Shown here piece by piece: positions 40,405 through 57,553 of a stretch of DNA of 64,000 bases. The notes below the pieces were generated by a model, which saw nothing but the letters and a program-made list of their open reading frames with translations, did not search any database and was not told where the DNA came from. Positions within the stretch are counted from its first letter, which is position 1; every line of letters begins with the position of its first letter. The translations under genes were made by a program, and so were the position numbers. This DNA is from Burkholderiales bacterium (lineage in GTDB: Bacteria > Pseudomonadota > Gammaproteobacteria > Burkholderiales > SG8-41): NCBI GenBank assembly GCA_019751125.1, contig JAIENU010000022.1, positions 7,524-71,523 on the forward strand. Direction: 5' to 3'.

Positions 40405-40549
40405 GTCCTGTCCAGTCTTTTTTCCAGTTGATAGGGGCGGGCCGCATTGCGAGCGGCGATGGCACGATGTTACATTGAATCGAAACCGGGTTTTCCCGTT
40501 ACTGCCCGCTTCTTTCCACTCACCAATCGATGCCGGAGGAGACCGCGCA

Positions 40550-41680: not shown

Positions 41681-42007
41681 ACCTTCCCAAAAAACCGCGG
41701 TCCACCCTGACATGGCAATACTGATCGGATACTGGTTGATGCTGGCCGCCAGCTGCATGGCAGGGCCGGCATCCGTACGCCTTCAGCGCCAGCGGGTTCC
41801 CGCCTGCATCACCAGCCGCACGCAAGCCGCCGGAAAGCCGAACGCCTTCGTCTCTTCCGCCCGGCGCCGCCACCGCCGCTGACCTTCCGGTCCGGCTGCA
41901 GCAGCGCCGGGCCTCACTCCAGAAGCAGGACATCGTCAGGCACCGCCTTCAGGGCGGCGCAGGACTTCCCGTCGCTTTGAGATGAAAAAAGGAAGGAAAA
42001 CAACACC

Positions 42008-43251: not shown

Positions 43252-44052
43252 ATGAATATCCCGCCACATCCGCAGGGTTTTTTGCGCATTGTTACGGCCC
43301 TGCTGATGGCCGCGGGGCTTGCCGGCGCAATTACACCGGCCACGGCCGCGACGCCCGCCGAACGCTACACCCAGTTCTGCGCGATGTGCCACCTGCCCGG
43401 TGTTCACGGCGCACCCAAGGTCGGCCGCCACGATGACTGGCTGCCAAGGTTGAAACCGGGCCTGAACATGGTCTATCGCAATGCCGTCGAAGGCATGCCC
43501 AATACCGCGATGCTGGCGCGGGGCGGCGCCGATCTTTCCGAAGCCGAGGTGCGGGCCGTGGTGGATTTCATGCTCGCGGCAAGCGCGCTGCCGGCTTCGG
43601 CGCTGCGCAATGCCGCGCGTTACGACAGGTTCGGCCTCAGCGACCGCGATTTCATCCGCCGCGACACCAGCCGCGACGGCTTCCTGTCACGCAGCGAGGT
43701 TTCCGCGGATCCGCTGCTGCTGAAGAATTTCTCGCGCTTCGACAGCAATCGCGATGGCCGCCTGAGTGAAACCGAATACCGCAATGCCGAAACCGCGCTC
43801 GAACGCGAGCGCATCGCCGCAAACGTGGACGACGCCACCCTGACCGCTGCGGTGAAACAGGCGCTGGCCGCGGTCAGGGGCATCGATTTCGAATACGTGA
43901 AATTCGACGTCAGCGGCGGCGAGCTGACGGTGAAGGGAATCGTCGGCCACGCCGAAGTCGCCGTCCGCGCCCAGGATGCGCTGAAACGCATCACCGGCTT
44001 GAAACGTATCAGCAACAATCTGGTATCGGGCGACCAGATCAGCTGGGATTGA
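43252..44052 (+). CDS. Exported cytochrome c5-like + EF-hand + BON domain protein
   Basis: Signal peptide, CAMCH..G..GAPK.G..DW..R, DTSRDGFLSRSE and DSNRDGRLSETE loops, DDATLTAAVKQAL BON. Confidence 0.8.
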   Translation: MNIPPHPQGFLRIVTALLMAAGLAGAITPATAATPAERYTQFCAMCHLPGVHGAPKVGRHDDWLPRLKPGLNMVYRNAVEGMPNTAMLARGGADLSEAEVRAVVDFMLAASALPASALRNAARYDRFGLSDRDFIRRDTSRDGFLSRSEVSADPLLLKNFSRFDSNRDGRLSETEYRNAETALERERIAANVDDATLTAAVKQALAAVRGIDFEYVKFDVSGGELTVKGIVGHAEVAVRAQDALKRITGLKRISNNLVSGDQISWD

Positions 44053-44105
44053 CCGGACCGGGCTGATCGGACGGTGCCGAGCCCGGTCCCCGCCTTCAGC
44101 GTTTC

Positions 44106-45398
44106 TTATTTTGCCTTGTCCTGCGCGATGTCCATGATCATGCGCACGGCAAGGTACATCCGCGGTTCGATCGATCCGATCAGCACATATTCGGCATCGG
44201 TGGTGTGTGCGCCAAAGCCGCGCAGGCCGAAACCTTCCAGCACCGGCGACTTCTGGCTCAGCGCGGCGAAGGCGGCATCGGTGCCGCCGCCGGTGGGACG
44301 GTCGCGCACGATCAGCTTCTGGCCGAGCTCGGTGTAGATTTTCGCGGCATGCGCGCCGAGTGCACGCGAGGCCTCGGTGGCCTGCAGCGGCGGCCGCCGG
44401 CGCTCGAATTCCAGCGTGACCTCGGATTCGGGCAGCAGCTTGTTCTTGATGCGCTCGCGCAGCGTATTCTCGATGCCGTCGAGGTCGGCAACAATATCCA
44501 CGCGGATATCGGCCTGGGCCTGGGCTCCGGGCGGGATCATGTTGCGCACCACGCCGGCACGCGCCAGCGTCCAGTTGACCTGGGTGCCGACTTCCGGCTT
44601 CGACAGGTCGCGCGCCTGCATCACCTGGTGCGCCAGCTCGTACAGCGCGTTGACGCCGCGCTCCGGCGCCGATCCCGCATGGGAACCGCGCCCGCGTACA
44701 TTGATCGTCGCCGCACCGATGCCGCTGGTGGCGAGCCGGATCTGGTCCGCCGTCGGTCCGCCGCCGCCCTCGAAGGACAGCACTGCATCGTGCTCGGCAC
44801 CCATTTTGGTGATCAGGTGGCGCGAACCCGGCGAGCTGATTTCCTCGTCGCCATTGATCAGCACGGTCAGCGTGCCGTAGTCGCGGAAATTCATCGCATT
44901 GAGCACGCGAATCGCATGCAGGATCATCGCCACGCCCTGCTTGTCATCGGCGATGCCGAGACCGTAGGCGCGCTCACCATCCACCTTGAACGGCTGCTGC
45001 GCCAGCATGCCGCGCGGATACACCGTATCCATATGCGCCAGCAGCAGGATCTTGCGCGTGCCCTTGCCGGTGAATATCGCACGCACCGTCTTGCCGGGTT
45101 TGTCCGGCGTGTCGAACATCTTGTAGATGTCGGCGCCTGCCTCGATGTATTCGACCTTGCCGCCCAGCGCCTGCAGCCGCTGTCCGATCAGCGCCGCGAT
45201 GCGGTCAAGGCCCTCGCGGTCGGCACTGCCCGATTCGATCTCGACCAACGCCTTCATGGTGTCGAGCATCGGCGCCTTTTCCTTCGCCACCAGCGCCTGC
45301 ACCTCCGGCATCGGCTGTGCCGGGGCCATCGCCGCCATCCCCAGTCCCGCCAACACCAGCAAGATCCTGCACAACCGGCTCATGCTTTGACTCATCAT
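44106..45398 (-). CDS. M20 family peptidase, glutamate carboxypeptidase (CPG2)-like, exported
   Basis: AHMDTV, GIADDKQG, GDEEISS, GGGTDA, GAH. Confidence 0.88.
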   Translation of the reverse strand: MMSQSMSRLCRILLVLAGLGMAAMAPAQPMPEVQALVAKEKAPMLDTMKALVEIESGSADREGLDRIAALIGQRLQALGGKVEYIEAGADIYKMFDTPDKPGKTVRAIFTGKGTRKILLLAHMDTVYPRGMLAQQPFKVDGERAYGLGIADDKQGVAMILHAIRVLNAMNFRDYGTLTVLINGDEEISSPGSRHLITKMGAEHDAVLSFEGGGGPTADQIRLATSGIGAATINVRGRGSHAGSAPERGVNALYELAHQVMQARDLSKPEVGTQVNWTLARAGVVRNMIPPGAQAQADIRVDIVADLDGIENTLRERIKNKLLPESEVTLEFERRRPPLQATEASRALGAHAAKIYTELGQKLIVRDRPTGGGTDAAFAALSQKSPVLEGFGLRGFGAHTTDAEYVLIGSIEPRMYLAVRMIMDIAQDKAK

Positions 45399-45419
45399 CA
45401 CTCCCCTCTAACCGCTCTG

Positions 45420-45445
45420 ATTTTTATCAAAAAAACAATGATTTA
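45420..45445 (+). repeat. Dispersed AT-rich IHF-like element, copy 9
   Basis: ATTTTTATCAAAAAAACAATGATTTA in the kinase-peptidase gap. Confidence 0.75.
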
Positions 45446-45455
45446 TGCCAACCAC

Positions 45456-47957
45456 TCAAACACCGGCCACCGGCAACTCAAACCAGAATGTCGAACCTTC
45501 GCCCTCAATCGAGTCGAAACCGATGCTGCCGTTCATATGCTCGATCAGCGCCTTGCTGATGGCAAGCCCCAGTCCGGTGCCACCCTTGCGCCGGGTATTC
45601 GTATTGTCGGCACGCTCAAAGCGCTGGAAGATGCTGCCGCGGAAATTCTCAGGTATGCCCGGCCCGTGGTCACGCACCGAAACCCGCACCTTGCCCTCAC
45701 CCAGCACCAGGCTGACTTCGACATCCGAACCGGCAGGTGAAAACTTCGCACCATTTGAAATCAGGTTGGTCAGCACCTGCATCAGCCGGTCGGCATCGAC
45801 CGCGACATTGCAGTCCGCCCCCGGCAGCAGCTTCAGCGTCACATTGTGCATGCCGGCATAGGGCTGGTTGATGCGCACCGCCTTGTCGAGGATCGCGCGC
45901 AGTGGCATCGGACGCAGGTCGACGGTCATCTGGCCCGAGCTGATCTTCTCGATGTCGAGCACGTCGTTGATCAGCGCTGCAAGGCGTTCGCTGTTCTGCA
46001 TCGCCATGTCGAGGAAGCCGGCGGTTTCGGCATCGATGTCGGTGGCGGTCTCGCGCACCAGGCCCAGCGCGCCGATGATCGCGGTCAGCGGTGTGCGCAG
46101 TTCGTGGCTGACGGTGGCGATGAACTCGTTTTTCAGGCGTTCGACCTCCTTGCCTTCGGTGATGTCGGCATTGGTGCCGACCAGGCGCAGCCCGCGGCCC
46201 GCGGCATCCCGCTCGGTGACCTTGGCGCGGCTGAGCATCCAGCGCCACTCGCCCTTCGGCGTGCGCACCCGGTGCTGCACCTCGTAAAACCGCAACTCGC
46301 CTTTCAGCACCTGGGTCAGCACGCGCAGCAGCCTGGGCAGATCATCGGGATGCACCATCGCCTGCAGTGCTTCGACGCTGATCACGGTCTCGGCTTTTTT
46401 GCCGCCCATCATCAACTGCCATTGTTCGGACAGGCGCACCTCACCCGAGCGGATATCCCAGTCAAACAGTGCGAGGTTGGAACCCTCCAGCGCCAGCTCC
46501 AGCCGTTCGCGGCTTTTCAGGATGGCATCGGTGTACTGGCGGCGTTCGGTGACATCCTCGACCAGGCCGACATAACCGGCAAAACGCCCCTCGTCGAGGA
46601 TCTTTGCCGCCTTGATCACGATCCACGCCTCGGGCCTGCCCGCCGGCACGATGCGGCAGGTCACGCTGAATTCCTCCTTCAGGTTCGACAGCGCAGAAGC
46701 CCAGGCGAGGATGATTTCATTGCGCTCGTCCGGATGGATCAGCTGCTGCCAGCCTTCGCCGAGCAGTTCAGCCGCCGGCAGGCCGCCCAGCGCCTCGAGC
46801 CGCGGATTGACGTAGGTCCAGTGGCCGGCATCATCCCCCCTGAAAATGCCCAGCGGCGATGCATCACTCATCGCCTGCCATTCCGCTTCGCGTCGGCGTA
46901 CCGCCTGGGTCATCCTGCCGGCCAGCGACACGGCGCGGCTGCGGGTATTCCACAACGACCACAACATCGCAAACAGCAGCATGTGCATCGCCACGCCGCC
47001 CAGCAGCACGATGCGCGGCGTGATGTCGTCTACCCCCTCCTCGAAGGCGCTAGTCGATTCCATCTGCAACACCCAGACCTGGCCCAGCACATTCAGGTTG
47101 GCCGCCCACTGGAAGCGCCCCTTGTGCAGCGGATCGACGTTGTCGAACAGCAGATTATCGGCGGCGGCCCGCCCGTCATACAGGCGCATCGCGACCTCGC
47201 TCTGGTCGCCGATGAGCTTGCGCATCAGGTCGCGGCTGCGGAAATGCGCGAACACGAATCCGGTCACCGCGCTGCGGCGCTGCTCGGCGGTTTCCGGCGA
47301 TTTGGTCTGGTGAAAAATCGGCATGTACATCACCACCCCGGGCTGCACATCACCGTCGGTCTCCTGCACCAGACGCACCTTGCGCGTGATCGCCGGCTGG
47401 CCGGTCAACATTGCACGCTCCTGCGCGTCGCTGCGTATGTCATCCGAAGCCGCATCAAAACCGAAGGCGCGCAGGTTACGCCCCGAAAACGGCTCGATAT
47501 AGGCGTTGGGCACATGATAGTCACGCACACCCGGCGGGGTGATCTGGTATCCGGGAAAACCCTCGGTGCGGATGCGGCGTACAAAAGATTCCACCTCGCT
47601 CTGGCGCAGCCGCGGCGCATAACCGATGGCCTGAATGCCGGGATAGTAATTCTCGAGCTTCAGGCTCTCGTAATAGGCGCGCCACTCGTTGCGGTCTACC
47701 GCCTCCGATGCGGCAAACAACCCGCTGGCGCCACGCAGCACCTGCTCGTAATCGAGCAGGCGACCGGCGATGGCGTCACGGATGCGCGAGGCGCGGGCCT
47801 CGAAGCTGGCATTGGCCTTGGCCTCGACCGCGTCGAGCTGCACCTGCCAGGCCTGCAGCACCACAACTGCCGGCAGCACGATCGCCACCAGCAGTGCCAG
47901 CAGGTTGTAAATCGTGTCACGCAGCGCTGCAAGACGGCGGGTCATGGCCTTGATCAT
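45456..47957 (-). CDS. CHASE-PAS-PAS sensor histidine kinase
   Basis: YPGIQAIGY..GRNLRAFGFD..LVQE CHASE; two PAS/PAC; VSHELRTPL, NGAKF, GTGLGL; ATGA overlap with GT2. Confidence 0.92.
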   Translation of the reverse strand: MIKAMTRRLAALRDTIYNLLALLVAIVLPAVVVLQAWQVQLDAVEAKANASFEARASRIRDAIAGRLLDYEQVLRGASGLFAASEAVDRNEWRAYYESLKLENYYPGIQAIGYAPRLRQSEVESFVRRIRTEGFPGYQITPPGVRDYHVPNAYIEPFSGRNLRAFGFDAASDDIRSDAQERAMLTGQPAITRKVRLVQETDGDVQPGVVMYMPIFHQTKSPETAEQRRSAVTGFVFAHFRSRDLMRKLIGDQSEVAMRLYDGRAAADNLLFDNVDPLHKGRFQWAANLNVLGQVWVLQMESTSAFEEGVDDITPRIVLLGGVAMHMLLFAMLWSLWNTRSRAVSLAGRMTQAVRRREAEWQAMSDASPLGIFRGDDAGHWTYVNPRLEALGGLPAAELLGEGWQQLIHPDERNEIILAWASALSNLKEEFSVTCRIVPAGRPEAWIVIKAAKILDEGRFAGYVGLVEDVTERRQYTDAILKSRERLELALEGSNLALFDWDIRSGEVRLSEQWQLMMGGKKAETVISVEALQAMVHPDDLPRLLRVLTQVLKGELRFYEVQHRVRTPKGEWRWMLSRAKVTERDAAGRGLRLVGTNADITEGKEVERLKNEFIATVSHELRTPLTAIIGALGLVRETATDIDAETAGFLDMAMQNSERLAALINDVLDIEKISSGQMTVDLRPMPLRAILDKAVRINQPYAGMHNVTLKLLPGADCNVAVDADRLMQVLTNLISNGAKFSPAGSDVEVSLVLGEGKVRVSVRDHGPGIPENFRGSIFQRFERADNTNTRRKGGTGLGLAISKALIEHMNGSIGFDSIEGEGSTFWFELPVAGV

Positions 47958-49390
47958 GGATTGCCTCCGCCGGTCTGCCAGCTGGCCTTGCGCGTCATCT
48001 CGCCCCAGCGTGCCTTGGAACCTGTCATCCACAACAGCAGCCCCCACAGCCGCCACAGCGAATTGAGCTGACGGTAGCCGAAGTTCTCCAGGATCACCAC
48101 CACCAGCAACACCGCAATCTGCCCGGGCTTGGGATAAATATGAAAGGAAATTTCCTCCAGCAGCAGCGAGCTCACCGACAGCACCAGCCCGAAGCCGAAG
48201 GCGACCAGGATAAACGTCCAGAACGCCTCCCCCGAGACCATGCCGAGCAGCCAGGCACTGATCATGAAGGCGTAACCGGCAACCTCGATCAGCGGCCCCA
48301 GCCACTCGAATATCGCCATGAACGGGAACGCCAGCCACCCGGCGGCGCCGCCGCGCGGATGGAACAGCAGCCCGAGATTCATCGTCAGGCTCTCGGACAG
48401 GCCGCGCTGCCAGCGCACGCGCTGGTTCTTCAGCACCCGCAGCGACTCCGGCGCCTCGGTCCAGCAGATCGGATCGGGCACAAAAACGATGCGGTATGGC
48501 GTGCCGCGGGCGCGGAACAGCCGGTGCAGGCGCACCACCAGCTCCATGTCCTCGCCCACCGTGTCGTGGCGGTAACCGCCGGCCTCGACCACCACTTCCT
48601 TGCGGAAAATGCCGAAGGCACCGGAAATGATCAGCACCGCGTTCAGCGGCGACCAGCCGAGCCGGCCGAACAGGAAGGCGCGCAGGTATTCAACAATCTG
48701 CAGCAACGCCAGCGGATTGCGCGGCAGCCCGACAGAGGTCAGGAACCCGCTGTCGACGGTGCAGCCGTTGGCAATCCTCACCGTGCCGCCGGAGGCGATG
48801 GTGCGCGGATCCTCTAGGAAGGGTTCGATCACCCGGCGCAGGCTGTCGCGCTCGAGTACCGAATCGGCATCAACGCCGCAGAACAGCGGGTAACGCGCGG
48901 CATTGATGCCTGCATTCAGCGCATCGGCCTTGCCGCCGTTTTCCTTGTCGATCACGCGCAGCGTCGGGTAGGTCGCCGAACGGTAGATGCCGCGCACGGT
49001 TTTGGTCCTCAGGCGCTGCCACGAGGCTTCGGGAAAGGGCAGCAGCGAGAACTCGCGCTGCAGCGCGGCCATGGTGCCGTCCTTCGATCCGTCGTTGATC
49101 ACCACCACCTCGTACTCGGGGTAGTTCAGCTGCAGCATCGAGCGCACCGAACCGGCGATGGTCGCCTCCTCGTTGTACGCCGGCACCAGCACCGACACCG
49201 GCGGCTCGAAGCCGGACACGCTGCGCGGCAGGTCATCAAGGCTGTGCATCTCCACATAACGCTTCAGGCTGCCCAGCGACAGCAGGTTGAGCAGCATGTA
49301 ACCGGAATTGATGCCGATGAAATAGAGCAGGAAAAACCACTGGGCAAAGCTCACCCAGTCCCATTGCGGCCAGCCGTCGAAAAAGCTCAT
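47954..49390 (-). CDS. Processive GT2 glycosyltransferase (PgaC/IcaA-like)
   Basis: PAYNEE, NDGS.D, GGKADALN, DADS, GED, QRVRW; flanking TM helices. Confidence 0.92.
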   Translation of the reverse strand: MSFFDGWPQWDWVSFAQWFFLLYFIGINSGYMLLNLLSLGSLKRYVEMHSLDDLPRSVSGFEPPVSVLVPAYNEEATIAGSVRSMLQLNYPEYEVVVINDGSKDGTMAALQREFSLLPFPEASWQRLRTKTVRGIYRSATYPTLRVIDKENGGKADALNAGINAARYPLFCGVDADSVLERDSLRRVIEPFLEDPRTIASGGTVRIANGCTVDSGFLTSVGLPRNPLALLQIVEYLRAFLFGRLGWSPLNAVLIISGAFGIFRKEVVVEAGGYRHDTVGEDMELVVRLHRLFRARGTPYRIVFVPDPICWTEAPESLRVLKNQRVRWQRGLSESLTMNLGLLFHPRGGAAGWLAFPFMAIFEWLGPLIEVAGYAFMISAWLLGMVSGEAFWTFILVAFGFGLVLSVSSLLLEEISFHIYPKPGQIAVLLVVVILENFGYRQLNSLWRLWGLLLWMTGSKARWGEMTRKASWQTGGGNP

Positions 49391-50538
49391 GCCCTCGCCT
49401 CCGCAATTGCCTCGCCGAGCATGTCGGCGGCGAAACGGTCGCTCAGCGTGCCGCGCACCTTGTCCAGATCCTCGAGCCGCGCGCCGGGCAGCGTGATCAG
49501 CGCGCGGGCAGCGTGGTAACGCACCCACCAGTGGGTATCGCAAAGCAGGTCCATCAGCAGCACGCGGTCCGCCGGCTCGCCGATGCGGCCGAGCACACGC
49601 AGCGCCGCGAGCCGCACAAACCACTCGCCGTGGCGGGCCAGCGCGCGCACGATGTCGAGGTCACGCGGATCCTGGGTCAGGCGCAGCGCGGCAGCGATCA
49701 CCTCCGGCTCGTCCGACTCCCGGGCGATGCGCCCGGCGAGCGGCGCAACACGCTCGGTGTGCGCGACCTCCATCATCTGCAGCAGCCGCACCACTTCGCG
49801 TTTGCCGCCCTCGACCCGTGATGCCGCCTCGGTGGCGGCGATCAACGGCTGGGTGCAGCGGTCGGGGCCGGCTTCGCGCAGCATTGCCACCACCCGCGCC
49901 AGCGGCCAGTCCTCGCGTGAGGCCATCACCGTCACCAGCCAGGCCAGTGTTGCCGCGGCATCGATGTCGAGCAGCGCGCGGGCCGCCGCCAGCGACAGCA
50001 TCGGCGAGCGGTCGGACACCAGCGCGCGCAGCTCATGCCACTGCGTGCGGTCACCGAGATGGCCCAGTGTCACCACGCCGATCAGGCGCTGGCGCAGATC
50101 GCCGGACCGCATCAGGTCACGCGCAACCTCTTCGAGGTGCATGCGCTCAGCCAGTGTTTCCAGGTTGCGCCTGGCGGCGCCGACCAGCGATTCGTGGTGG
50201 TAGTTCCAGTGCTTCAGGAAGTGATATCGCATCTCGCGCGGCACCTCGGGCAGACGCTCGGGCACGCCGAACACGCATTCGGCGAGCAGCGGTTTCCAGC
50301 GCGCCTCATGAAAACGCTCGCGGCGCTGCCGTGCCAGCAGGCGCATGCGCAGCGCAAACACCGAGAGCAGCATCAGGAAGGAACAGGCAATGATGATCAA
50401 CCCGGTCTGGAACACCAGGGCCAGCAGCGGATCCTGGGGCAGCCAGCCGGCGGCTGCGGCAGATTCAGGAATCCGTGAAAGATTGAAGTCCAGACGCAGC
50501 AAAGCCGAAGGTAAACCCAAAGGAAAACCCGGAGTCAA
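49387..50538 (-). CDS. Membrane-anchored HEAT-repeat protein
   Basis: N-terminal TM helix; repeats such as WFVRLAALRVLGRIG and WWVRYHAARAL; start uncertain. Confidence 0.82.
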   Translation of the reverse strand: MTPGFPLGLPSALLRLDFNLSRIPESAAAAGWLPQDPLLALVFQTGLIIIACSFLMLLSVFALRMRLLARQRRERFHEARWKPLLAECVFGVPERLPEVPREMRYHFLKHWNYHHESLVGAARRNLETLAERMHLEEVARDLMRSGDLRQRLIGVVTLGHLGDRTQWHELRALVSDRSPMLSLAAARALLDIDAAATLAWLVTVMASREDWPLARVVAMLREAGPDRCTQPLIAATEAASRVEGGKREVVRLLQMMEVAHTERVAPLAGRIARESDEPEVIAAALRLTQDPRDLDIVRALARHGEWFVRLAALRVLGRIGEPADRVLLMDLLCDTHWWVRYHAARALITLPGARLEDLDKVRGTLSDRFAADMLGEAIAEARA

Positions 50539-50557
50539 GAGAGAATACGGCAGGAAC

Positions 50558-51379
50558 TCAGAAGCTGTGGCGGAGGCCCAGCCTCAATCCCTGCCGGCGA
50601 TAAAGACTGCCCTGCTCGTGCCGCACGCCGTCATAAGTCAGCGCCCAGGACTGGTTGAGCCAGTGCTGCCCGCCCAGCGTCCAGTTCTCGACATCAGTGC
50701 TGATCACGCCGCGCGGCGGACCTACGTTCTCGACCTCGCGGCCGTTCGAATACGACAACCCGAAGGTGCTGCGATCGGTGTAGTAATAGTTGAACTGGAA
50801 ACGGTGGGCGGAAGCCGACGACGCACCTTCAGGACGCCCCGAGTACAGTGTGTAGGCACCGCGGAAATTGCCCCAGTAACGCTCGGCCATCAACGACACC
50901 ACCTGGCTGGAGATCACGGTGTATTCGGAATGGCGCAGCCCGAGGCCGACATTCCAGCCGCCGGGCAACGTTTTCTGCACCTGTCCGTAGACCGAGTTTT
51001 TCGACAGCACGTTGTGGGTCTGGCTGATGCTGCCCTCGATCACGCCGCTCCAGGTCGCCGCAATCGGAAAATAAAGACCGGCATGCGCCTCGCTGTCGTC
51101 AAGGCCGAAGCGCCGGGTCTCGCGCAGGCCGCCATAGACGGTGAGCCGGTCGCCGAGCCCGGCACTGCCCAGCAGGTAGCTGCTGGTCCAGTCCGCATTG
51201 TTGTTGGTCAGCGACTCACGGCTGTGGCCAACCTCAAGCGCCGGGCGCGCCACGCGCGATCCTTCGGCCTGGGCCAGCAAAGGCGCCGGCGCCAGACTGC
51301 ACAGCAGGCCGCACAGCAGCGTGATCCCGCCCGCGAACGAAGCCCTGCCGGTGACCGCCATGTTGTCAGAGGTGTCCAT
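50558..51379 (-). CDS. YaiO-family outer-membrane beta-barrel
   Basis: Signal peptide, amphipathic beta-strands, ERYWGNFRGAY, C-terminal ..GLRHSF. Confidence 0.78.
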   Translation of the reverse strand: MDTSDNMAVTGRASFAGGITLLCGLLCSLAPAPLLAQAEGSRVARPALEVGHSRESLTNNNADWTSSYLLGSAGLGDRLTVYGGLRETRRFGLDDSEAHAGLYFPIAATWSGVIEGSISQTHNVLSKNSVYGQVQKTLPGGWNVGLGLRHSEYTVISSQVVSLMAERYWGNFRGAYTLYSGRPEGASSASAHRFQFNYYYTDRSTFGLSYSNGREVENVGPPRGVISTDVENWTLGGQHWLNQSWALTYDGVRHEQGSLYRRQGLRLGLRHSF

Positions 51380-51783
51380 CACGCCGCCCCCTTCACCAGC
51401 CGCTTCACCCGCGCGCGCAGTTCCTCGGGCTTGAACGGCTTGATCATGTAATCCGAAGCGCCGGCATCCAGCGCACGCACGATGTCTTTTTCCTGTGATT
51501 TCGCGGTCAGCATGATCACCGGCACCGCATTCCACTCCGGTCGGGCACGGATTTCCGAGAGCAGCAGATAACCATCGACAAAGGGCAGCATCACGTCGAG
51601 CATGACCAGCGCCGGCGGCGGCATTGTTGCAATCAGTGCCTGCGCCGCACGGCCATCATTCGCGACTTCGACCACGAAGCCCTCGCGCGACAGGATGAAG
51701 CGCAGCAGATAGGCAATCTGCTCCTCATCCTCGACGATCAGGGCCTGGCGGGTTTCAGAGGCTGCAGGGGCTGGACTGGACAT
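51379..51783 (-). CDS. Stand-alone response regulator receiver
   Basis: LIVEDE, LDVMLP, MLTA, KPF; no output domain. Confidence 0.92.
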   Translation of the reverse strand: MSSPAPAASETRQALIVEDEEQIAYLLRFILSREGFVVEVANDGRAAQALIATMPPPALVMLDVMLPFVDGYLLLSEIRARPEWNAVPVIMLTAKSQEKDIVRALDAGASDYMIKPFKPEELRARVKRLVKGAA

Positions 51784-51948
51784 GACGTCAACGCGACCGG
51801 AATGTGAACGGGAATCCGAGCAACTACAATGACTTAGATGCCGCTATGATACCCCGGGTCCGCAGCCTGCGCGCGGCACAAAATCACTGACTGCGCGCAG
51901 TATTCGACAGCGCAGTCATACACAGCCCAGCCAGCCCCGCCACCGCTG

Positions 51949-53820
51949 ATGCCCCGTCTCGCTCCCGCACGAGTGTTGATTCCCGTACTGGCCATCACCG
52001 CGGCGCTGGCCGCCTGGCTGGCCCTGCGGCCCTTGCCCGCACCGGCAGTTTTTCCCGGCCTCGGCGGTCCGGCTGAGGCAAGCACCGTCGCCAGTGCGCA
52101 GCGCGCACGCTGGCAGGATTACACCGAGGGTGGCGAGCAGGCGCTGGCGATCCTGCTCACCGACCCCGATTCCGCATGGATGGGCCTCGCCCACGGCCTG
52201 AAAACGATCGGCCTGCCCTTCATCATCACCACCGATGCACAACACGCGCTGCGTCACCGGGTGGTGATGGTCTACCCCACCATCTCCGGCCGCGTGCTCG
52301 ACCAGGCAGCCCTGCAGGCACTCGCCGTGCTGCCCCGCAACGGCGGCACGCTGATCGGCTTCAACGTCGAGGGCGGCGGCCTGGAGCCGGTGTTCGGCTT
52401 TGAAGGCCTGAGCCACGACCGCAGCCGCACCGAGCTGCGTTTCAACACCGCATTGCCGGTCAGCGCCGAATTCAGCGACCCGCATGAACGCGTGATCCCG
52501 ATCAATCCGCGCCAGCGTTCGGCCAACGACATGGGCGTCGTCGCCTACACCCAGCCGAAACTGCCCGCGCTCGCCAGCTACGACAACGGCGCTGCGGCGA
52601 TCACCCACCGCCCGGTCGGCACCGGCCATGCCTATGCCTTCGGCATCGACCTCGGGTTTTTCCTGCTCAAGGGCTACAACAACCGCGAACAGGGCGTGAC
52701 GCGGCATTACGCCAACGGGTTCGAACCCACGCTCGATGTGCTGCTGCGGCTGCTGCGCAACATCTACCGCCAGGGTGAGCCCGATGCAGTGACCCTGGCC
52801 ACGGTGCCGCGCGGACGCAAACTGAGCGTGGTGCTGACTTACGACATCGACTACACCCACTCGCTGGCCAACGCCGCGGCCTACGCCGAAGCGGCACGCA
52901 AGGCCGGTGTCAGCGGCACCCACTTTGTGCAGACCAAATACATCCGCGACTGGAACGATGACGCCTTCCTGACGCCGGCGTCAGCGCCGAACCTCCAGCG
53001 CATCGCCGGACTCGGCATGGAAATCGGCAGCCACTCGGTATCGCACTCGCGGGTGTTCAGCCAGTTCCCGCTGGGCAACGGCAAGGAACGCTACCCGGAT
53101 TACCAGCCCTTCGTCTTTGACGCCACCACCACGCGAGACGGCACCATACTCGGCGAACTGCGGGTCAGCCGCTTCCTGCTCGGCCACCTCGCCGGTGCCG
53201 GCGACCCGGTGAGTTTCCGTCCCGGCCACCTCGAATATCCGTTCAAGCTGCCGCAGGCGCTGGAAGCCACCGGCTTCCGCTACAGCTCCTCGATCACCGC
53301 CAACACCGCGCTGACCCACCTGCCGTTCCGCCTCGCCTACGACCGCGATGTCAGCGCACAAACCGGCGTCTACGAATTTCCGATCACCGTCGAAGACGAA
53401 CTCGGCGCGCGCCTGGGCGACCGCCTGCCGCAGGCACTCGAGCTGGCTGGAAAAATCGAACGTTATGGCGGGCTTTACGTGGTGCTGATCCATCCCAACA
53501 TCACCGGCCACAAGCTCGAGTTCCAGAACCGGCTGATCGCGGGCTTGAAAGACCGCGCATGGTTCGGCACCTTGCGTGAATTCGGAGGCTGGTGGGTGGC
53601 CCGTGATGCCGCCAGCCTGCGTGTCAGCAGCAGCGATCGGCAGCGCAGGCTGCAGCTGACGCTGCCGCAGGCGCTGTCAGACCTCGCACTCGAAGTGCCC
53701 GCGCAGTGGCGGCTCGACCGCGAACACGCGCCAGCCGGAATCACACAGTCTGGCAATCGCGTGCTGCTCGGCGGTGAGCGCAGCGGCCGCATCGACCTCC
53801 AATTTACTGTCGCCCCCTGA
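51949..53820 (+). CDS. Polysaccharide deacetylase (CE4-like), N-terminally anchored/exported
   Basis: TYDID, EIGSHSVSH, SFRPGHL, LIHP motifs in the C-terminal half. Confidence 0.8.
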   Translation: MPRLAPARVLIPVLAITAALAAWLALRPLPAPAVFPGLGGPAEASTVASAQRARWQDYTEGGEQALAILLTDPDSAWMGLAHGLKTIGLPFIITTDAQHALRHRVVMVYPTISGRVLDQAALQALAVLPRNGGTLIGFNVEGGGLEPVFGFEGLSHDRSRTELRFNTALPVSAEFSDPHERVIPINPRQRSANDMGVVAYTQPKLPALASYDNGAAAITHRPVGTGHAYAFGIDLGFFLLKGYNNREQGVTRHYANGFEPTLDVLLRLLRNIYRQGEPDAVTLATVPRGRKLSVVLTYDIDYTHSLANAAAYAEAARKAGVSGTHFVQTKYIRDWNDDAFLTPASAPNLQRIAGLGMEIGSHSVSHSRVFSQFPLGNGKERYPDYQPFVFDATTTRDGTILGELRVSRFLLGHLAGAGDPVSFRPGHLEYPFKLPQALEATGFRYSSSITANTALTHLPFRLAYDRDVSAQTGVYEFPITVEDELGARLGDRLPQALELAGKIERYGGLYVVLIHPNITGHKLEFQNRLIAGLKDRAWFGTLREFGGWWVARDAASLRVSSSDRQRRLQLTLPQALSDLALEVPAQWRLDREHAPAGITQSGNRVLLGGERSGRIDLQFTVAP

Positions 53821-55520
53821 TGCTGCGCCTGCTGCCGTGCATGTTGCTGCTTGCCGCCACCCATGCCGGCGCGGCCACGCTGAACCTCTGTCCCGGCAAG
53901 ACCGCACCCGCTGATGCACGCCTCCTCGACAGCGTGCTGCGCCCCTCCGGTGAACCGCTGCAGCTGGTGATGCATGAAGACAGCCTCGCCGGCTGCGAAA
54001 CCATCACGCTCGAACATCTGCCGCGCTGGGCCAAACTGCTCGACCGTTCCAGCGCGCAACGCCTCACCGGCGGCCTGATGCTGCAGACCGCGCGCGGCGA
54101 GTCACGCAGCACCGCGCCGCAGGATGTGATCCCGATCGACACGCGCGCACAGGGCAACGAAGCGGCAGGACCGGCACTGATGCTGCCCGGCAGTGAACTG
54201 CTGCCGCTGCTGCAGGCGGCCACCTTCGGCGCCGAAGGCCGCGCCAGCCTGCGCCGCAGCGGCGGCCAGCTCCTGCTCGAATGCAGTGCCGGAGAACGTC
54301 CCGCCGGCGCCCTGCTCCGCGGCAATAACCAGTCGCTGCCCGCCGGTGTGCGCCTCGCACTGCGCGTCGATGCCGAAGCCAGCGCGGCGTTCCGAATCGC
54401 TGCCGCAGACGCCACACGCGACAGCCGCGGCGATGCGCTGACGCTGGGCAGCGTTGACGGCAACCGTCACACCGTGCAACTCGACCTGCCAACGTCACTC
54501 GACACCCGCAACTGGCGCAGCTGGGTGCTGGAATGCCCGCGCAACGAGGCCCGGCTCACGCTGCATTCGCTGAAACTCGCTGCCGCCGCGGGCACCATCA
54601 ACAAACCACGCGCGCTGTGGATCTGGCAGCCGCAGTACTGGCAGCAGCAGGAAGCCAAATTGCTGGAACTGCTCGCCGCGCAGGGCGCCGACACCGTCTA
54701 CATCTCGGTGCCGCTGCAAGGTGATCCGCCTGAAGTGGAGCAGGCCGAAGCGCTGCAGCGCTTCATTGCTGCAGCGGGCCGCCGCGGCCTGAAGGTGTGG
54801 GCCGTGGCCGGCGACCCGCGGGCGGTGCTGCCGGATGAACGCCGGAAATATGTGGCGCTTGCAGAGGCGCTGGCGGACTACAACCGCAAGGCCCCGCCCG
54901 CATCGCAGCTCGCCGGTCTGCAACTCGACATCGAGCCCTATCTGAATCCCGGCTACGCCCACGACCCCGAAGGCTGGCTTGCCGCCTATGTCGAAACGCT
55001 GGCGCTGATCAGGCCGCGCGTGATGATGCCGCTCGATGTTGCGCTGCCCTTCTGGTGGGGACGCCAGCGCCTGCGCGACGGCCTGTTCCTCGATGCATTG
55101 AAACCGCTGGTCGATATCGTCACGGTGATGAACTACCGCACCGACCCGCAGCAGCTGATGGCCTTTGCCGAGCCTTTTCTGAGCTGGGGAGCGGCAAACG
55201 GCAAACCGATCCGCATCGGACTCGAAAGCGGACCGATCCCGGACGAGTCACTCCATGCCTATCGCCGCGCAAGTACTGGTGATCTGTGGCTGGTAAACAT
55301 CGGCCGCCAGCATGCAGTGCTGCTGATGCTGGACGCGGCGCGCGCCAATCCCGCCGGCATCAGCTACGGCCACAGCCATACCATCAACCGCGGTGGTGAT
55401 CAGGTTACTTTCCAGCGTAACCCGGAAGCGCTGCGCAAGCTGCTGCCGCAGCTGGAAGATCTGTGGCGCGCCTGGCCGTCGTTTGCCGGCGTGGCGCTGC
55501 ACGGGATGGATCAGGATTGA
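53820..55520 (+). CDS. Exported protein with C-terminal glycoside-hydrolase-like TIM barrel
   Basis: Signal peptide; RALWIW, GLQLDIEPY, VMNYR, GVALH; TGATG coupling to the deacetylase. Confidence 0.6.
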   Translation: MLRLLPCMLLLAATHAGAATLNLCPGKTAPADARLLDSVLRPSGEPLQLVMHEDSLAGCETITLEHLPRWAKLLDRSSAQRLTGGLMLQTARGESRSTAPQDVIPIDTRAQGNEAAGPALMLPGSELLPLLQAATFGAEGRASLRRSGGQLLLECSAGERPAGALLRGNNQSLPAGVRLALRVDAEASAAFRIAAADATRDSRGDALTLGSVDGNRHTVQLDLPTSLDTRNWRSWVLECPRNEARLTLHSLKLAAAAGTINKPRALWIWQPQYWQQQEAKLLELLAAQGADTVYISVPLQGDPPEVEQAEALQRFIAAAGRRGLKVWAVAGDPRAVLPDERRKYVALAEALADYNRKAPPASQLAGLQLDIEPYLNPGYAHDPEGWLAAYVETLALIRPRVMMPLDVALPFWWGRQRLRDGLFLDALKPLVDIVTVMNYRTDPQQLMAFAEPFLSWGAANGKPIRIGLESGPIPDESLHAYRRASTGDLWLVNIGRQHAVLLMLDAARANPAGISYGHSHTINRGGDQVTFQRNPEALRKLLPQLEDLWRAWPSFAGVALHGMDQD

Positions 55521-55533
55521 GGATTGAGGATTG
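55514..55533. repeat. Heptamer tandem repeat (GGATTGA) x~3
   Basis: GGATTGA GGATTGA GGATTG spanning the stop codon. Confidence 0.6.
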
Positions 55534-55556
55534 CGGGGTAATGCTCCCCCACACCA

Positions 55557-55582
55557 CCGTTCGCCCTGAGCTTGTCGAAGGG
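55557..55582. repeat. REP-like element
   Basis: CCGTTCGCCCTGAGCTTGTCGAAGGG resembles the widespread CCCTTCGACAxGCTCAGG extragenic repeat; single copy here. Confidence 0.6.
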
Positions 55583-55637
55583 TGGGCAGTTAGAACAGTG
55601 ATGAACTCGGAGCGATGAGTGATAAGCGAAAAACGCG

Positions 55638-56543
55638 CTACGCCGCCAGCTTCGCTCTTGGGTGCCCAAGCACGCCTTCGGGCTTCAAGGCCGGCACATC
55701 ACCGGCACACTGGATGCGGTGCATCACCCGCCGGTAGCCACCATCAAAGGGGTCGCGGTGGTGCATCACGCAGCGGTTGTCCCAGATCAGCAGGTCACCG
55801 GGCTGCCAGACATGGTGCCAGGTGAAACGCTCCTGCGTGGCATGTGACCACAGGGCTTCGAGGATGGCCTCGGATTCCTCGACCGAATAACCGTTGATAT
55901 AGGCATTGGGCCTGCGGCCGAGGTACAGCGCATTGCATCCGGTTTCGGCATGGGTGCGGATGATCGGATGACTGGGGCCCGGCGCATCACGCACATCATT
56001 CACCGGCTGGAAACCTTCACGCAGGTCGCCGGCGCTGTTGTAGGTCATGTCGTGCTTCAGTGTGCGGCCCTCGATTTTCGCGCGCAGCTGCGGGGCCAGG
56101 GTTTCCAGCGCCAGATACATGTTGGCAAAGCCGGTATTGCCGCCCTTCGGCGGAATCTCCAGCGAGTACAGCGCGCTGTAGGACAAGGGCCGGTCGCGGT
56201 AGGAATTGTCGGAATGCCACACCACCTCGGCATCACGCAGCACGCCGATGGCCTCGCCGTTTTCGGTGACGTTGGACACGATGACGATTTCCGGATGCGT
56301 ACGCGCGCGCTCCTTGCCGGTCTTCGCCAGCGGCGCGAAGTCGAGGGTGCCGAGGCGTTTGCCGAAAGCGATCAGCTCGGGATCACTCAGCTGCTGGCCG
56401 CGGATGCGGATCACCAGGTGATCAAGCAGCGCGCGATAGACCTTGCCGAAGGCCGCCTCATCCAGCGTGCGCAGGTCGCCGCAGTCCACCTCGGCGCCCA
56501 GCGCTGCGTCCTGTGCAGTCACGTTCACACTCCGGGCCGTCAT
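55638..56543 (-). CDS. TauD/TfdA Fe(II)/2-oxoglutarate dioxygenase
   Basis: WHSD, GGNTGFANM, HPIIRTH.ETG, WDNRCVMHHR. Confidence 0.92.
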   Translation of the reverse strand: MTARSVNVTAQDAALGAEVDCGDLRTLDEAAFGKVYRALLDHLVIRIRGQQLSDPELIAFGKRLGTLDFAPLAKTGKERARTHPEIVIVSNVTENGEAIGVLRDAEVVWHSDNSYRDRPLSYSALYSLEIPPKGGNTGFANMYLALETLAPQLRAKIEGRTLKHDMTYNSAGDLREGFQPVNDVRDAPGPSHPIIRTHAETGCNALYLGRRPNAYINGYSVEESEAILEALWSHATQERFTWHHVWQPGDLLIWDNRCVMHHRDPFDGGYRRVMHRIQCAGDVPALKPEGVLGHPRAKLAA

Positions 56544-56556
56544 CGCAGAATCTCCA

Positions 56557-56584
56557 TAAGCTATTGTTTATATTGATATTTTTA
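56557..56584 (-). repeat. Dispersed AT-rich IHF-like element, copy 10
   Basis: TAAAAATATCAATATAAACAATAGCTTA between the Bug stop and the TauD RBS. Confidence 0.85.
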
Positions 56585-57553
56585 TCAGTCTATGCGGATA
56601 TTCGCCGCCTTGGCGATGCGGCCATAACGGACAAACTCGTCCCGGATCTGCGCGCCATATTCCTGCGGCGTGCTGCCCACCGCTTCGAGACCGCGCGCGG
56701 CGAGTGCCGCCTTGCTCTCCGCTGATTTGAGGATCGCCACCATGTCCTTGTTCAAGCGCGCAATCACCGCTGCCGGCGTCTTCGCCGGCGCGAGCACGCC
56801 GAACACCGTCGCCGAGTCGTAACCGGGCACGCCCTCTTCAGCCACCGTCGGAAACTCCGGCGCCAGCGCCGAACGCTGCCTGGTGCCCACCGCAAGAAGG
56901 CGCAGCTTGCCCGAACGCACATGCGGCAGGATGGTTGGCAGGTTTTCAAACATCAGGTTGAGCCGGCCGCCGAGCAGGTCGGTCACCGCCGGGCCCGCGC
57001 CCTTGAACGGCACATGCACCAGTTTGATGCCGGTCATCGCCATGAACTGCTCGGTGGAAAAATGCCCGACCGAGCCGTTGCCGGCGGAACCGAAGTTGAG
57101 TTCACCCGGCTTCGCCTTCGCCAGCGCAATCAGTTCCTTCACCGTCTTTGCCTGGAATCCGGGATGGGTGACCAGCGTGAACGGGCTCACTGTCGCCAGC
57201 GTGATTGGCGCGAAATCCTTCAGCGAGTCGTATGGCGTCTTGTCGCGGATGTTGGGGTTGATGGTCAGCGGCCCCGCGCTGCCGAGCACGATGGTGTAGC
57301 CGTCGGCCGGTGCACGCGCCGCCAGCTCGGCGCCGAGCACACCGCCGGCACCCGCGCGGTTGTCCACCACCACGGTCTGGCCCAGCGGCGCACCCAGCTG
57401 CTGCGCCAGAAAACGCGCCAGCAGGTCGGTGCTGCCGCCCGGCGCGAAGGGCACGATGAAACGCACCGGCTTGTTCGGGTAATTGGCCTGGGCCTGCACT
57501 GCCGGTGCAATGAACGGCGCCGCCAGTGCAGCGGCGATCAAGGTATTGCGCAT
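56585..57553 (-). CDS. Bug/TctC tripartite tricarboxylate transporter receptor
   Basis: YPNKPVRFIVPFAPGGSTD, NRAGAGG, DGYT, HVPFKG. Confidence 0.93.
   Translation of the reverse strand: MRNTLIAAALAAPFIAPAVQAQANYPNKPVRFIVPFAPGGSTDLLARFLAQQLGAPLGQTVVVDNRAGAGGVLGAELAARAPADGYTIVLGSAGPLTINPNIRDKTPYDSLKDFAPITLATVSPFTLVTHPGFQAKTVKELIALAKAKPGELNFGSAGNGSVGHFSTEQFMAMTGIKLVHVPFKGAGPAVTDLLGGRLNLMFENLPTILPHVRSGKLRLLAVGTRQRSALAPEFPTVAEEGVPGYDSATVFGVLAPAKTPAAVIARLNKDMVAILKSAESKAALAARGLEAVGSTPQEYGAQIRDEFVRYGRIAKAANIRID

Follow-up and report, generated by a model that had tools for sequence, protein, structure and literature searches.

The window analysed here is a stretch of 64,000 nt from a Burkholderiales bacterium (GCA_019751125.1, contig JAIENU010000022.1), and all coordinates are positions within it. 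Seven genes lie in two divergent groups either side of a 165-bp intergenic region (51784-51948). The reverse-strand group encodes, in order of transcription, a single-domain response regulator (the receiver, REC; 51379-51783, 134 aa, Response_reg), an outer-membrane beta-barrel (YaiO; 50558-51379, 273 aa, TIGR04390), a protein with one membrane-spanning helix and a HEAT-repeat solenoid on the cytoplasmic side (HEAT; 49387-50538, 383 aa, HEAT_2), a processive family-2 glycosyltransferase (GT2; 47954-49390, 478 aa, Glycos_transf_2 and Chitin_synth_2) and a sensor histidine kinase (HK; 45456-47957, 833 aa, with CHASE, two PAS, HisKA and HATPase_c domains in Pfam). The forward-strand pair encodes a membrane-anchored periplasmic deacetylase-type protein (CE4; 51949-53820, 623 aa, Polysacc_deac_1) and an exported 566-aa protein of an unnamed family (TIM; 53820-55520), the latter described on the basis of a structure model. 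ATGA overlaps join HK to GT2 and GT2 to HEAT, and one-base overlaps (TGATG) join REC to YaiO and CE4 to TIM, whilst a gap of 19 nt separates YaiO from HEAT if the TTG at 50538 is taken as the HEAT start; an alternative TTG at 50502 would give a protein of 371 aa, a length common among its relatives. The seven genes, their domains and the overlapping junctions given in a preliminary description of this DNA were thus all found in place. A sigma-70-like site was not found in the divergent intergenic region, an Rfam search of 44000-57000 returned no family at E <= 1, and a search for RNA runs covering the locus found none. Judged by its sequence, the locus holds a genuine gene set, complete for the synthesis, trimming and export of a sugar polymer.

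Synthase, barrel and periplasmic enzymes

In processive membrane GT2 synthases, transmembrane helices flank a GT-A domain that carries the motifs D, DxD, (G/T)ED and QxxRW. GT2 (Glycos_transf_2, 1.1e-24; Chitin_synth_2, 1.5e-10) has both the motifs and the flanking helices: one N-terminal and at least three C-terminal transmembrane helices (at least four in total) surround a domain in which D100, D174/D176, E280/D281 and Q323, R324, R326 and W327 are invariant in 50 family members, so that the DxD, ED and QRVRW motifs noted earlier are present and fixed across the family. Its best NCBIfam match is PgaC_IcaA (TIGR03937) with 145.5 bits, under the cut-off of 422.3; cellulose synthase CelA reaches 59.9 bits and NodC 36.9 bits. 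It is 25% identical to E. coli PgaC across 422 aa (E 4e-33), and BcsA aligns to residues 54-371 (E 1e-9). By profile score, the nearest characterised synthase family is PgaC/IcaA. The HEAT protein (HEAT_2, 2.4e-18) has a transmembrane helix at residues 45-63 followed by an Arg-rich stretch, and is probably a co-subunit of the synthase.

The YaiO protein carries a signal peptide and scores above the curated cut-offs of TIGR04390 (107.8 bits; cut-off 32) and PF19413 (57.8 bits; cut-off 23.9). Its structure model (pLDDT 89.4) has 14 strands; the closest folds are OmpG (TM 0.58-0.62), and the PgaA barrel 4y25 stands at rank 16 among the fold matches (TM 0.53). The preliminary description had remarked on the lack of a TPR region on the barrel, which holds for the YaiO of the window and fails for the family, many relatives being TPR-YaiO fusions like PgaA and BcsC.

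The CE4 protein combines a signal anchor (residues 8-26), an N-terminal flavodoxin-like (GH42M-like) domain, for which the Atlas structural lead was Glyco_hydro_42M, and a deacetylase domain (PF01522, residues 291-445, 35 bits against a cut-off of 23.1). Residues D299, D301, H362, H366, R424 and H515 are invariant in 28 relatives; we take D299, D301, H362, H366 and H515 to be the Asp-His-His metal site and catalytic Asp/His of CE4 enzymes. With PF01522 above its cut-off and the metal-site and catalytic residues present, the protein belongs by sequence to the CE4 polysaccharide deacetylases. Its partner TIM had no sequence match in Pfam, NCBIfam or the PDB, whilst 1417 representative relatives were retrieved. 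The TIM model (pLDDT 93.8) shows two beta-sandwich (CBM-like) domains and a glycoside-hydrolase-like (beta/alpha)8 barrel, best matched over residues 259-566 by Cwp19 (5oq2, Z 18.9). GH5, GH35, GH164, GH1 and also GH18 folds are among the matches, and the PgaB hydrolase domain (Z 15.6) is tied with many other barrels. A clan GH-A-like enzyme would be expected to have a (beta/alpha)8 barrel in which a catalytic Glu follows strand 4 and another Glu follows strand 7. The LDIEPY sequence pointed out earlier was found in TIM, and its residues D370 and E372 do not vary among 58 relatives; these two carboxylates lie after strand 4 (366-369), and the invariant E469 ends strand 7 (464-469).

Conservation of the cassette and nature of the product

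Two surveys addressed co-occurrence in other genomes, the absence of which had been named beforehand as one of the grounds for refuting the proposal; refutation on this ground clearly failed. The first, anchored on HEAT, covered 50 genome loci whose flanks reached at least 3 kb upstream and 4.5 kb downstream. All 50 had GT2, 43 had YaiO and 41 had the family-specific receiver, whilst CE4 was found in 6 and TIM in 10. The second was anchored on CE4, used 19 metagenome loci flanked by at least 5 kb on each side, and recovered GT2 and YaiO in 18 loci each, REC in 17, HEAT in 16 and TIM in 15. The CE4 family is found almost only together with the REC/YaiO/HEAT/GT2 cassette. REC, YaiO, HEAT and GT2 thus recur jointly across phyla, in Beta- and Gammaproteobacteria, Acidobacteriota, Nitrospira and Nitrospinota, and the conservation of this core is well beyond chance. 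Gene order follows a window type, a Nitrospira type or a Lysobacter type, with the gene set kept throughout; in the Lysobacter-type variant a sulfatase-family membrane enzyme, which in our view resembles the phosphoethanolamine transferase of cellulose systems, takes the place of the deacetylase. At least 535 HEAT relatives occur in species genomes, and in 59 of 71 loci the end of the HEAT gene and the start of GT2 share 4 nt. The CE4/TIM pair is, from its genomic distribution, an accessory module of the cassette; as most cassettes lack both genes, the system does not inherently involve deacetylation.

The sugar of the polymer is most likely an N-acetylhexosamine, a reading drawn from sequence relationships and the weakest link of the interpretation. 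PgaC/IcaA is the top characterised family for GT2 by a wide margin over CelA and NodC, the CE4 enzymes of known synthase-dependent systems are N-deacetylases, and the CE4 family is nearly confined to the neighbourhood of the cassette. Each of these points argues against the product being, for example, a glucan or an O-acetylated polymer, with CE4 removing O-acetyl groups or acting on another substrate. That alternative draws on the distance of GT2 from PgaC (far under the family cut-off, with identity of only a quarter), on the lack of a nearby deacetylase in most cassettes, on the sulfatase-family enzyme of the Lysobacter-type variant and on a TIM barrel that fits GH5, GH35 and GH164 folds as well as GH18; we regard it as unlikely.

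We infer that the YaiO barrel is the export pore. Folds of the OmpG type with 14 strands form open pores, and the YaiO gene is placed within the operon, after the receiver gene and before HEAT. In the family, TPR-barrel fusions like those of PgaA and BcsC occur repeatedly, and the synthase combines the QxxRW signature of processive enzymes with more than one transmembrane helix. These observations speak against a product that stays in the periplasm or on the cell, or consists of short oligosaccharides, with YaiO serving some other purpose. Such a product would suit a barrel smaller than those of known exporters, which have 16-18 strands (16 in PgaA), and the 7 of 50 cassettes in which a nearby YaiO gene is missing; moreover, E. 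coli YaiO was found in the literature only as a diagnostic PCR target. We nevertheless think a non-secreted product very unlikely.

A literature search found no publication on the cassette, which can be set beside several characterised systems. Like PgaABCD/IcaADBC, it has an inner-membrane GT2 synthase (with PgaC the nearest characterised relative), a small membrane co-subunit, a periplasmic CE4 deacetylase and putative TIM-barrel hydrolase, and an outer-membrane barrel, with TPR in many cassette relatives. Unlike in PgaABCD, the synthase is not a PgaC equivalog by the NCBIfam cut-off, and PgaD, the small co-subunit that together with PgaC binds c-di-GMP, is absent, a 383-aa HEAT protein occupying the coupled position. 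The deacetylase and hydrolase are separate, optional proteins of other families, whereas PgaB is a CE4-GH153 fusion; the barrel in the window is a 14-stranded YaiO without TPR, whereas PgaA combines TPR and barrel; and a receiver protein stands where c-di-GMP acts. With xagABCD of Xanthomonas, a biofilm polysaccharide cluster built around the PgaC/HmsR-like GT2 XagB according to two reports (PMC3609779, PMC4643136), the cassette shares a PgaC-related GT2 at its centre, and a Lysobacterales variant of the cassette exists.

The earlier statement that yaiO of E. coli neighbours a GT2 and a deacetylase was borne out by the yaiS-yaiP-yaiX-yaiO arrangement of E. coli K-12. There YaiO barrel, GT2 and deacetylase genes adjoin on one strand, a combination of genes shared with the window, but neither a HEAT protein nor a receiver is present. 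Both barrels match TIGR04390, whilst pairwise BLAST found no similarity between E. coli YaiO and the YaiO of the window; YaiP is 26% identical to the cassette GT2 over 239 aa. The yaiX gene of E. coli K-12 is disrupted by IS2.

Proposed control of the synthase

Pel and Bcs systems share with the cassette a synthase-dependent logic, a TPR-plus-barrel exporter (PelB, BcsC), a periplasmic deacetylase or hydrolase (PelA, BcsZ) and a cytoplasmic regulatory subunit. In both, the regulatory subunit is a c-di-GMP receptor (PelD; in BcsA, the PilZ domain), whereas the cassette has no c-di-GMP receptor domain recognisable by Pfam, and its partner proteins differ. The PilZ, GGDEF and PgaD families, described earlier as missing, and also EAL and MshEN were absent from all seven proteins (Pfam, E <= 0.01). 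Unlike the c-di-GMP-gated synthases (Bcs, Pel, Alg, Pga, Nfr), the system showed no receptor family or riboswitch for c-di-GMP when Pfam was applied to the seven proteins and Rfam to 44000-57000 (E <= 1), though a cryptic binding site may exist.

What the operon does encode is a putative two-component pair. HK is ordered as a transmembrane helix (16-34), periplasmic CHASE domain (2.8e-59), second transmembrane helix (312-330), PAS, PAS, HisKA and HATPase_c, with no receiver domain detected by Pfam. The receiver has Response_reg as its only Pfam domain, in agreement with the earlier view that it lacks an output; its E18/D19, D63 and K115 are conserved in 50 members, leaving the phospho-acceptor residues intact. 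HisKA, HATPase_c, acidic pocket, phospho-acceptor Asp and Lys are therefore all present, as expected of a kinase and its receiver, but the term phosphorelay used previously does not fit, the signalling being a plain kinase and receiver pair and not a multistep phosphorelay. Scored with their own profile, members of the receiver family reach 160-206 bits and other receivers stay under 140, a separation that marks the cassette receiver as a distinct, dedicated orthologous group. An assignment as an EpsW equivalog was rejected (1.3e-20, 73.3 bits against a cut-off of 200). Of 40 loci with at least 6 kb on each side, only 17 have a transmitter ORF at a distance of up to 6 kb from the cassette, which counts against control by a neighbouring kinase.

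The preliminary description had suggested contact between receiver and HEAT, and controlled structure prediction returned such a contact. A three-chain model of REC, HEAT and GT2 gave an ipSAE of 0.70, compared with 0.43 for the best control; runs shared at least 92% of contacts, with partner pLDDT of at least 77. The modelled receiver sits on the juxtamembrane segment of HEAT (predicted contacts at residues 82-90 and 110-122) and on GT2, through helix 1 together with the loops that follow strands 3, 4 and 5. The score fell to 0.00 when either of two unrelated proteins replaced the receiver, whilst the control in which REC and HEAT were kept and GT2 was replaced still scored 0.43, so that HEAT carries most of the interface. 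Of 157 solved complexes 116 attain the score mark applied, as do 2 out of 215 mismatched pairs; these counts hold only roughly here since three chains and custom alignments were used, unlike in the calibration of the tool.

We favour, with moderate confidence, the reading that the genes together form a complete exopolysaccharide machine of the synthase-dependent kind, belonging to an unnamed family, in which the receiver sets synthase activity post-translationally in place of c-di-GMP; the control part, from kinase to receiver to synthase, is suggested by the structure model. GT2 would polymerise a nucleotide sugar and thread the chain across the inner membrane, with the translationally coupled HEAT protein as an obligatory cytoplasmic co-subunit in the place of PgaD, PelD or a PilZ domain. 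In the periplasm CE4 would deacetylate the chain and the CBM-TIM-barrel enzyme cut or trim it, a division of labour that is fused in PgaB and PelA, before the 14-stranded YaiO barrel passed it through the outer membrane. The CHASE-PAS kinase would phosphorylate the receiver, whose phosphorylation-site face would dock on the conserved juxtamembrane segment of HEAT and the GT-A domain, and the docked receiver would set the activity of the synthase after translation, replacing c-di-GMP.

The receiver might instead make no contact with the synthase and be a phosphate sink, or a connector that feeds a transcription factor encoded at another locus, control then being transcriptional or exerted through kinase flux. 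Single-domain receivers often are sinks or connectors. Helix 1 and the loop after strand 5 form a face that receivers also show to kinases, so what the model docks may be a surface that is sticky in general. In loci without a receiver, the HEAT segment at the predicted contact is just as well conserved (0.45 versus 0.47 for other positions) and so has at least one other role. The receiver is missing from 9 of 50 cassettes, and in five receiver-less genomes there was no orthologue elsewhere (best matches 117.5-118.9 bits, compared with at least 160 for family members). Against this stand the dedicated orthologous group to which the receiver belongs, its place at the head of the operon in 41 of 50 loci, with or without a kinase nearby, its conservation while the sensor domains of the kinases differ among loci, the null scores of the two unrelated proteins in the complex model, and a set of conserved cassette genes among which no DNA-binding regulator was found. 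On balance we consider a sink or connector unlikely.

The broader proposal, that a multi-phylum family of processive synthases is gated by a phosphorylated receiver docking on a HEAT co-subunit and the catalytic domain, is one to which we give slightly less than an even chance; if true, it would provide a two-component alternative to c-di-GMP for post-translational switching of matrix production. A single-domain receiver acting directly on a polysaccharide pathway has a precedent in EpsW of Myxococcus xanthus, which activates its pathway by binding the first enzyme (PMC12802240). The EpsW-EpsZ pathway depends on Wzx/Wzy, and EpsW acts there on the initiating phosphoglycosyl transferase, whereas the putative target of the receiver here is a processive synthase with a HEAT co-subunit.

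Organization of the locus and recurrence of its core

All seven genes named in the preliminary description are real, including the divergent pair. Five lie on the minus strand and are read in the order receiver (REC; 51783-51379, 134 aa), YaiO-family barrel (51379-50558, 273 aa), single-pass HEAT-repeat protein (50538-49387, 383 aa), family-2 glycosyltransferase (GT2; 49390-47954, 478 aa) and CHASE-PAS-PAS histidine kinase (47957-45456, 833 aa). This set is separated by 165 bp from the divergent plus-strand genes for a CE4 deacetylase-domain protein (51949-53820, 623 aa) and an exported TIM-barrel protein, hereafter TIM (53820-55520, 566 aa), which falls into no Pfam or NCBIfam family. Overlapping stop and start codons had been described for most junctions, and we found them at four of five (ATGA twice and TGATG twice); YaiO and HEAT are separated by 19 nt when HEAT begins at the TTG at 50538, whilst an alternative TTG at 50502 gives a protein of 371 aa, the length typical of its relatives. 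Hydropathy analysis placed two transmembrane helices around the CHASE domain of the kinase, one N-terminal and at least three C-terminal helices in GT2, a signal peptide on YaiO and a signal anchor on the CE4 protein. The HEAT protein has a single transmembrane helix followed by an Arg-rich stretch, and its solenoid should therefore be cytoplasmic according to the positive-inside rule. No riboswitch or other Rfam family was found between 44000 and 57000, and a promoter and terminator scan returned no more sites than in shuffled sequence. The genome assembly comprises 3.46 Mb in 275 contigs and is 94% complete, and the flanks of the locus (M20 peptidase, TauD, TctC receptors) belong to unrelated metabolism. 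Nearby, 43252-44052(+) encodes a 266-aa protein with an unusual mix of a cytochrome c domain, EF-hand calcium-binding motifs and a BON domain, and 40520-41758(-) holds a 412-aa ORF of no Pfam family, an uncertain gene call because a 457-aa ORF overlaps it on the opposite strand.

Searching a one-genome-per-species collection with a HEAT profile gave at least 535 relatives, of which the best 79 loci were retained. BLAST with the seven window proteins showed the order REC-YaiO-HEAT-GT2 in most of these loci, and 59 of 71 loci have a 4-nt overlap between the HEAT stop and the GT2 start. Since YaiO forms with a preceding TPR region escaped BLAST, its counts were too low for YaiO and were replaced by a recount with profiles from our own alignments, using thresholds set here (REC at least 150, HEAT at least 100 and GT2 at least 300 bits), of which only that for REC was justified, afterwards, by a bimodal score distribution. 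Across 50 HEAT loci with at least 3 kb upstream and at least 4.5 kb downstream, GT2 was present in every one, YaiO in 43 and the family-specific receiver in 41, and the co-occurrence in other genomes that the preliminary description presupposed is thus borne out for these genes. TIM (10/50) and CE4 (6/50) look optional from the HEAT side.

By record titles the HEAT loci span Burkholderiales, Gallionellaceae, Usitatibacter, Woeseiaceae, Lysobacter and Steroidobacteraceae, together with Blastocatellia and other Acidobacteriota, Nitrospira and Nitrospinota; Streptomycetaceae and Heliobacteriaceae labels on two loci look, in our opinion, like binning errors. The distribution is patchy and the cassette is not common: with genomes sampled evenly across the class, HEAT profile hits occurred in 12 out of 400 and CE4 protein hits in 3 out of 401 (genome G000 included). 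Cultured carriers are Lentisalinibacter species, Lysobacter yangpyeongensis, Aerolutibacter ruishenii and Herminiimonas fonticola. Among longer proteins retrieved with the HEAT query there were no HEAT fusions, which is weak evidence. Two surveyed loci carry tandem HEAT-GT2 pairs, L021:4032-10832 (a Usitatibacter MAG) and L049:2605-7812 (a Nitrospinota MAG), and the L021 GT2 copy away from the barrel is just 46% identical to the window GT2. A gene of the histone-deacetylase family (PF00850) lies just downstream of GT2 at L017:12694-13815(-) and in nine more loci (L014, L015, L019, L020, L025, L026, L033, L039 and L065), betaproteobacterial and gammaproteobacterial alike; it may be a further deacetylase tied to the cassette, or may reflect plain synteny.

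The synthase, the barrel and the CE4/TIM pair

The best characterised relative of GT2 is PgaC/IcaA (145.5 bits), followed by CelA (59.9) and NodC (36.9), all scores being far under the equivalog cut-offs. GT2 is 25% identical to E. coli PgaC over 422 residues, transmembrane region included, and also aligns with BcsA (1e-9); among 50 members its catalytic signature is invariant and mean column identity is 65%, an unusually high conservation. The model of YaiO is a 14-stranded barrel with short loops (pLDDT 89.4), with OmpG as nearest fold and the PgaA barrel at rank 16. The window YaiO has no TPR region, as had been claimed, but this does not extend to its relatives: TPR precedes the barrel in six of six long gammaproteobacterial forms and in the 786-aa Nitrospira-type and 459-aa Aerolutibacter forms. 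TPR followed by a barrel is the architecture of PgaA, BcsC and PelB. The cassette has its overall plan in common with Pga, Pel and Bcs systems, whilst its synthase, co-subunit and porin differ from those of Pga, which places it outside that system. The E. coli neighbourhood of yaiO is as previously described, with yaiS (deacetylase), yaiP (glycosyltransferase), yaiX and yaiO all on one strand; yaiX is an acyltransferase pseudogene broken by IS2, and the likeness of this cluster to the cassette is at family level only.

The CE4 protein has a family of over 1200 members with a length of about 625 aa; among 28 relatives, D299, D301, H362, H366, R424 and H515 are invariant. Its N-terminal domain (residues 36-285; 51949-52800) has no Pfam family, is conserved as strongly as the catalytic domain and resembles DUF2194 by features; as a lead only, Atlas models suggest that these N-terminal 250 residues resemble a flavodoxin-like GH42M domain. 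A PDB sequence search gave no match for either the CE4 protein or TIM, for which we found 1417 representative relatives and no family model. The TIM model (pLDDT 93.8) consists of two beta-sandwiches and a (beta/alpha)8 barrel. In a VIA search the barrel best matched Cwp19 (Z 18.9, rmsd 3.9, 241 residues), followed by GH18, GH5, GH35 and GH164 enzymes (Z ~16) and the PgaB hydrolase domain (Z 15.6), whilst Foldseek with the whole model returned only generic CBM-plus-barrel hydrolases. Three carboxylates are invariant, D370 and E372 after strand 4 and E469 at the end of strand 7, which we take to be the layout of retaining clan GH-A enzymes; because of this layout TIM is likely to be a glycosidase, a putative assignment from which activity and specificity cannot be read.

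When the survey starts from CE4, this gene and that for TIM prove tied to the cassette. A CE4 profile recovered 80 metagenome loci, and in the 19 with at least 5 kb on both sides GT2 and YaiO were each present in 18, REC in 17, HEAT in 16 and TIM in 15. The commonest layout, Nitrospira-type and unlike that of the window, has GT2 divergent from TIM, a 786-aa TPR-YaiO and CE4, these three being convergent with HEAT-REC, so that HEAT and GT2 stand apart (L117:4443-13467; also L075, L098, L101, L109, L115, L120 and others). As the same six functions are retained in differing orders, there is good reason to regard them as one functional unit. A Lysobacterales variant (L074:8932-17254, L061:8653-17250) has no receiver. 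Its HEAT and GT2 genes come first, followed by TPR-YaiO (459 aa in L061), a membrane enzyme of the sulfatase family (~820 aa) and, last, a short TIM-like protein; a separate TPR protein is encoded upstream. The presence of the sulfatase-family enzyme hints at a polymer with a phospho-substituent. This variant may have a relative in the xag cluster of Xanthomonas.

The receiver and possible control of the synthase

To our knowledge all well-studied Gram-negative synthase-dependent exopolysaccharide machines (cellulose, alginate, Pel, PNAG) are switched by c-di-GMP. The preliminary description had noted the absence of PgaD, PilZ and GGDEF, and across the seven window proteins we found none of PilZ, GGDEF, EAL, MshEN or PgaD; a cryptic c-di-GMP site may still exist. 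Compared with the c-di-GMP-switched machines, the cassette adds a putatively obligatory HEAT partner, the YaiO barrel and a dedicated receiver, and its two periplasmic enzyme families are unnamed or barely annotated. We found no description of the cassette in open-access papers and bioRxiv.

Profile scores indicate that the receiver is a dedicated family, as 59 locus ORFs scored at least 160 bits and the other 35 receiver-like ORFs less than 140. It resembles OmpR/PhoB receivers, has no output domain and conserves the acidic pocket, D63 and K115. The suggested complex of GT2, HEAT and receiver was predicted using a 50-row alignment for each protein drawn from the same loci, with the receiver as scored partner, and the proposed receiver-HEAT contact was recovered in the model with a score of 0.70 (runs 0.71, 0.70 and 0.70). 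The best control, in which HEAT and receiver were kept and GT2 was replaced, scored 0.43, and two unrelated proteins substituted for the receiver scored 0.00. The score mark is reached by 116 of 157 solved complexes versus 2 of 215 mismatched pairs, in a calibration that differs from the present job with its three chains and own alignments. The runs share at least 92% of contacts, with partner pLDDT of at least 77. Predicted contacts involve receiver residues 22-33, 45, 65-70, 94 and 115-120, HEAT residues 82-90 and 110-122, and GT2 residues 55, 87, 89, 181 and 213-218, the HEAT surface being a conserved juxtamembrane segment with invariant W81 and W111. This predicted interface surrounds the phosphorylation site of the receiver, suggesting that phosphorylation should change the fit. 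The closest mechanistic precedent comes from Myxococcus, where the single-domain receiver EpsW binds the first enzyme of a Wzx/Wzy pathway and so activates that pathway (PMC12802240).

Several observations count against phosphorylation of the receiver as the switch of GT2. Nine of the 50 cassettes have no receiver, and in five receiver-less genomes the best receiver matches reached 117.5-118.9 bits versus at least 160 for family members. Only 17 of 40 loci have a kinase within 6 kb, and these kinases differ in their sensor parts. In 10 receiver-less loci, conservation of the HEAT contact segment matches that of the rest of the HEAT protein, and if the model is right this segment must also serve some other purpose, of which GT2 binding is the simplest. 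The cassettes without a receiver therefore point to the receiver as an add-on to a HEAT-GT2 core that is able to work without it.

If the receiver does gate the synthase, it would represent a second, phosphorylation-based control of matrix production. A function would then also follow for YaiO, cited among the matches listed mainly as an E. coli PCR marker, for the TIM-barrel family (1417 representative clusters, no Pfam model) and for the 625-aa deacetylase family with its more than 1200 members. To this question the present analysis adds the receiver-HEAT-GT2 model with its controls, models of YaiO and TIM, the negative tests on receiver-less loci, and the reciprocal CE4-side survey tying the deacetylase and an unnamed glycosidase-like family to the cassette.

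Occurrence in water systems

Near-identical DNA (0.92-0.97 of sampled words) was found in 18 runs whose labels are drinking-water, biofilter, freshwater, aquatic or root metagenome; one of these runs may be the source of the window DNA, and the runs that match the locus come from 12 studies. The organism seems to be widespread in water systems. Near-unchanged recurrence in drinking-water, biofilter and freshwater metagenomes suggests that the polymer may matter for water-system biofilms. No RNA run was listed for the locus, two candidates being probably DNA and containing short pieces only. The stretch 47954-53820 is almost unchanged in the 18 runs, and an 8,528-nt contig from a biofilter shows 33 differences across 47059-55520.
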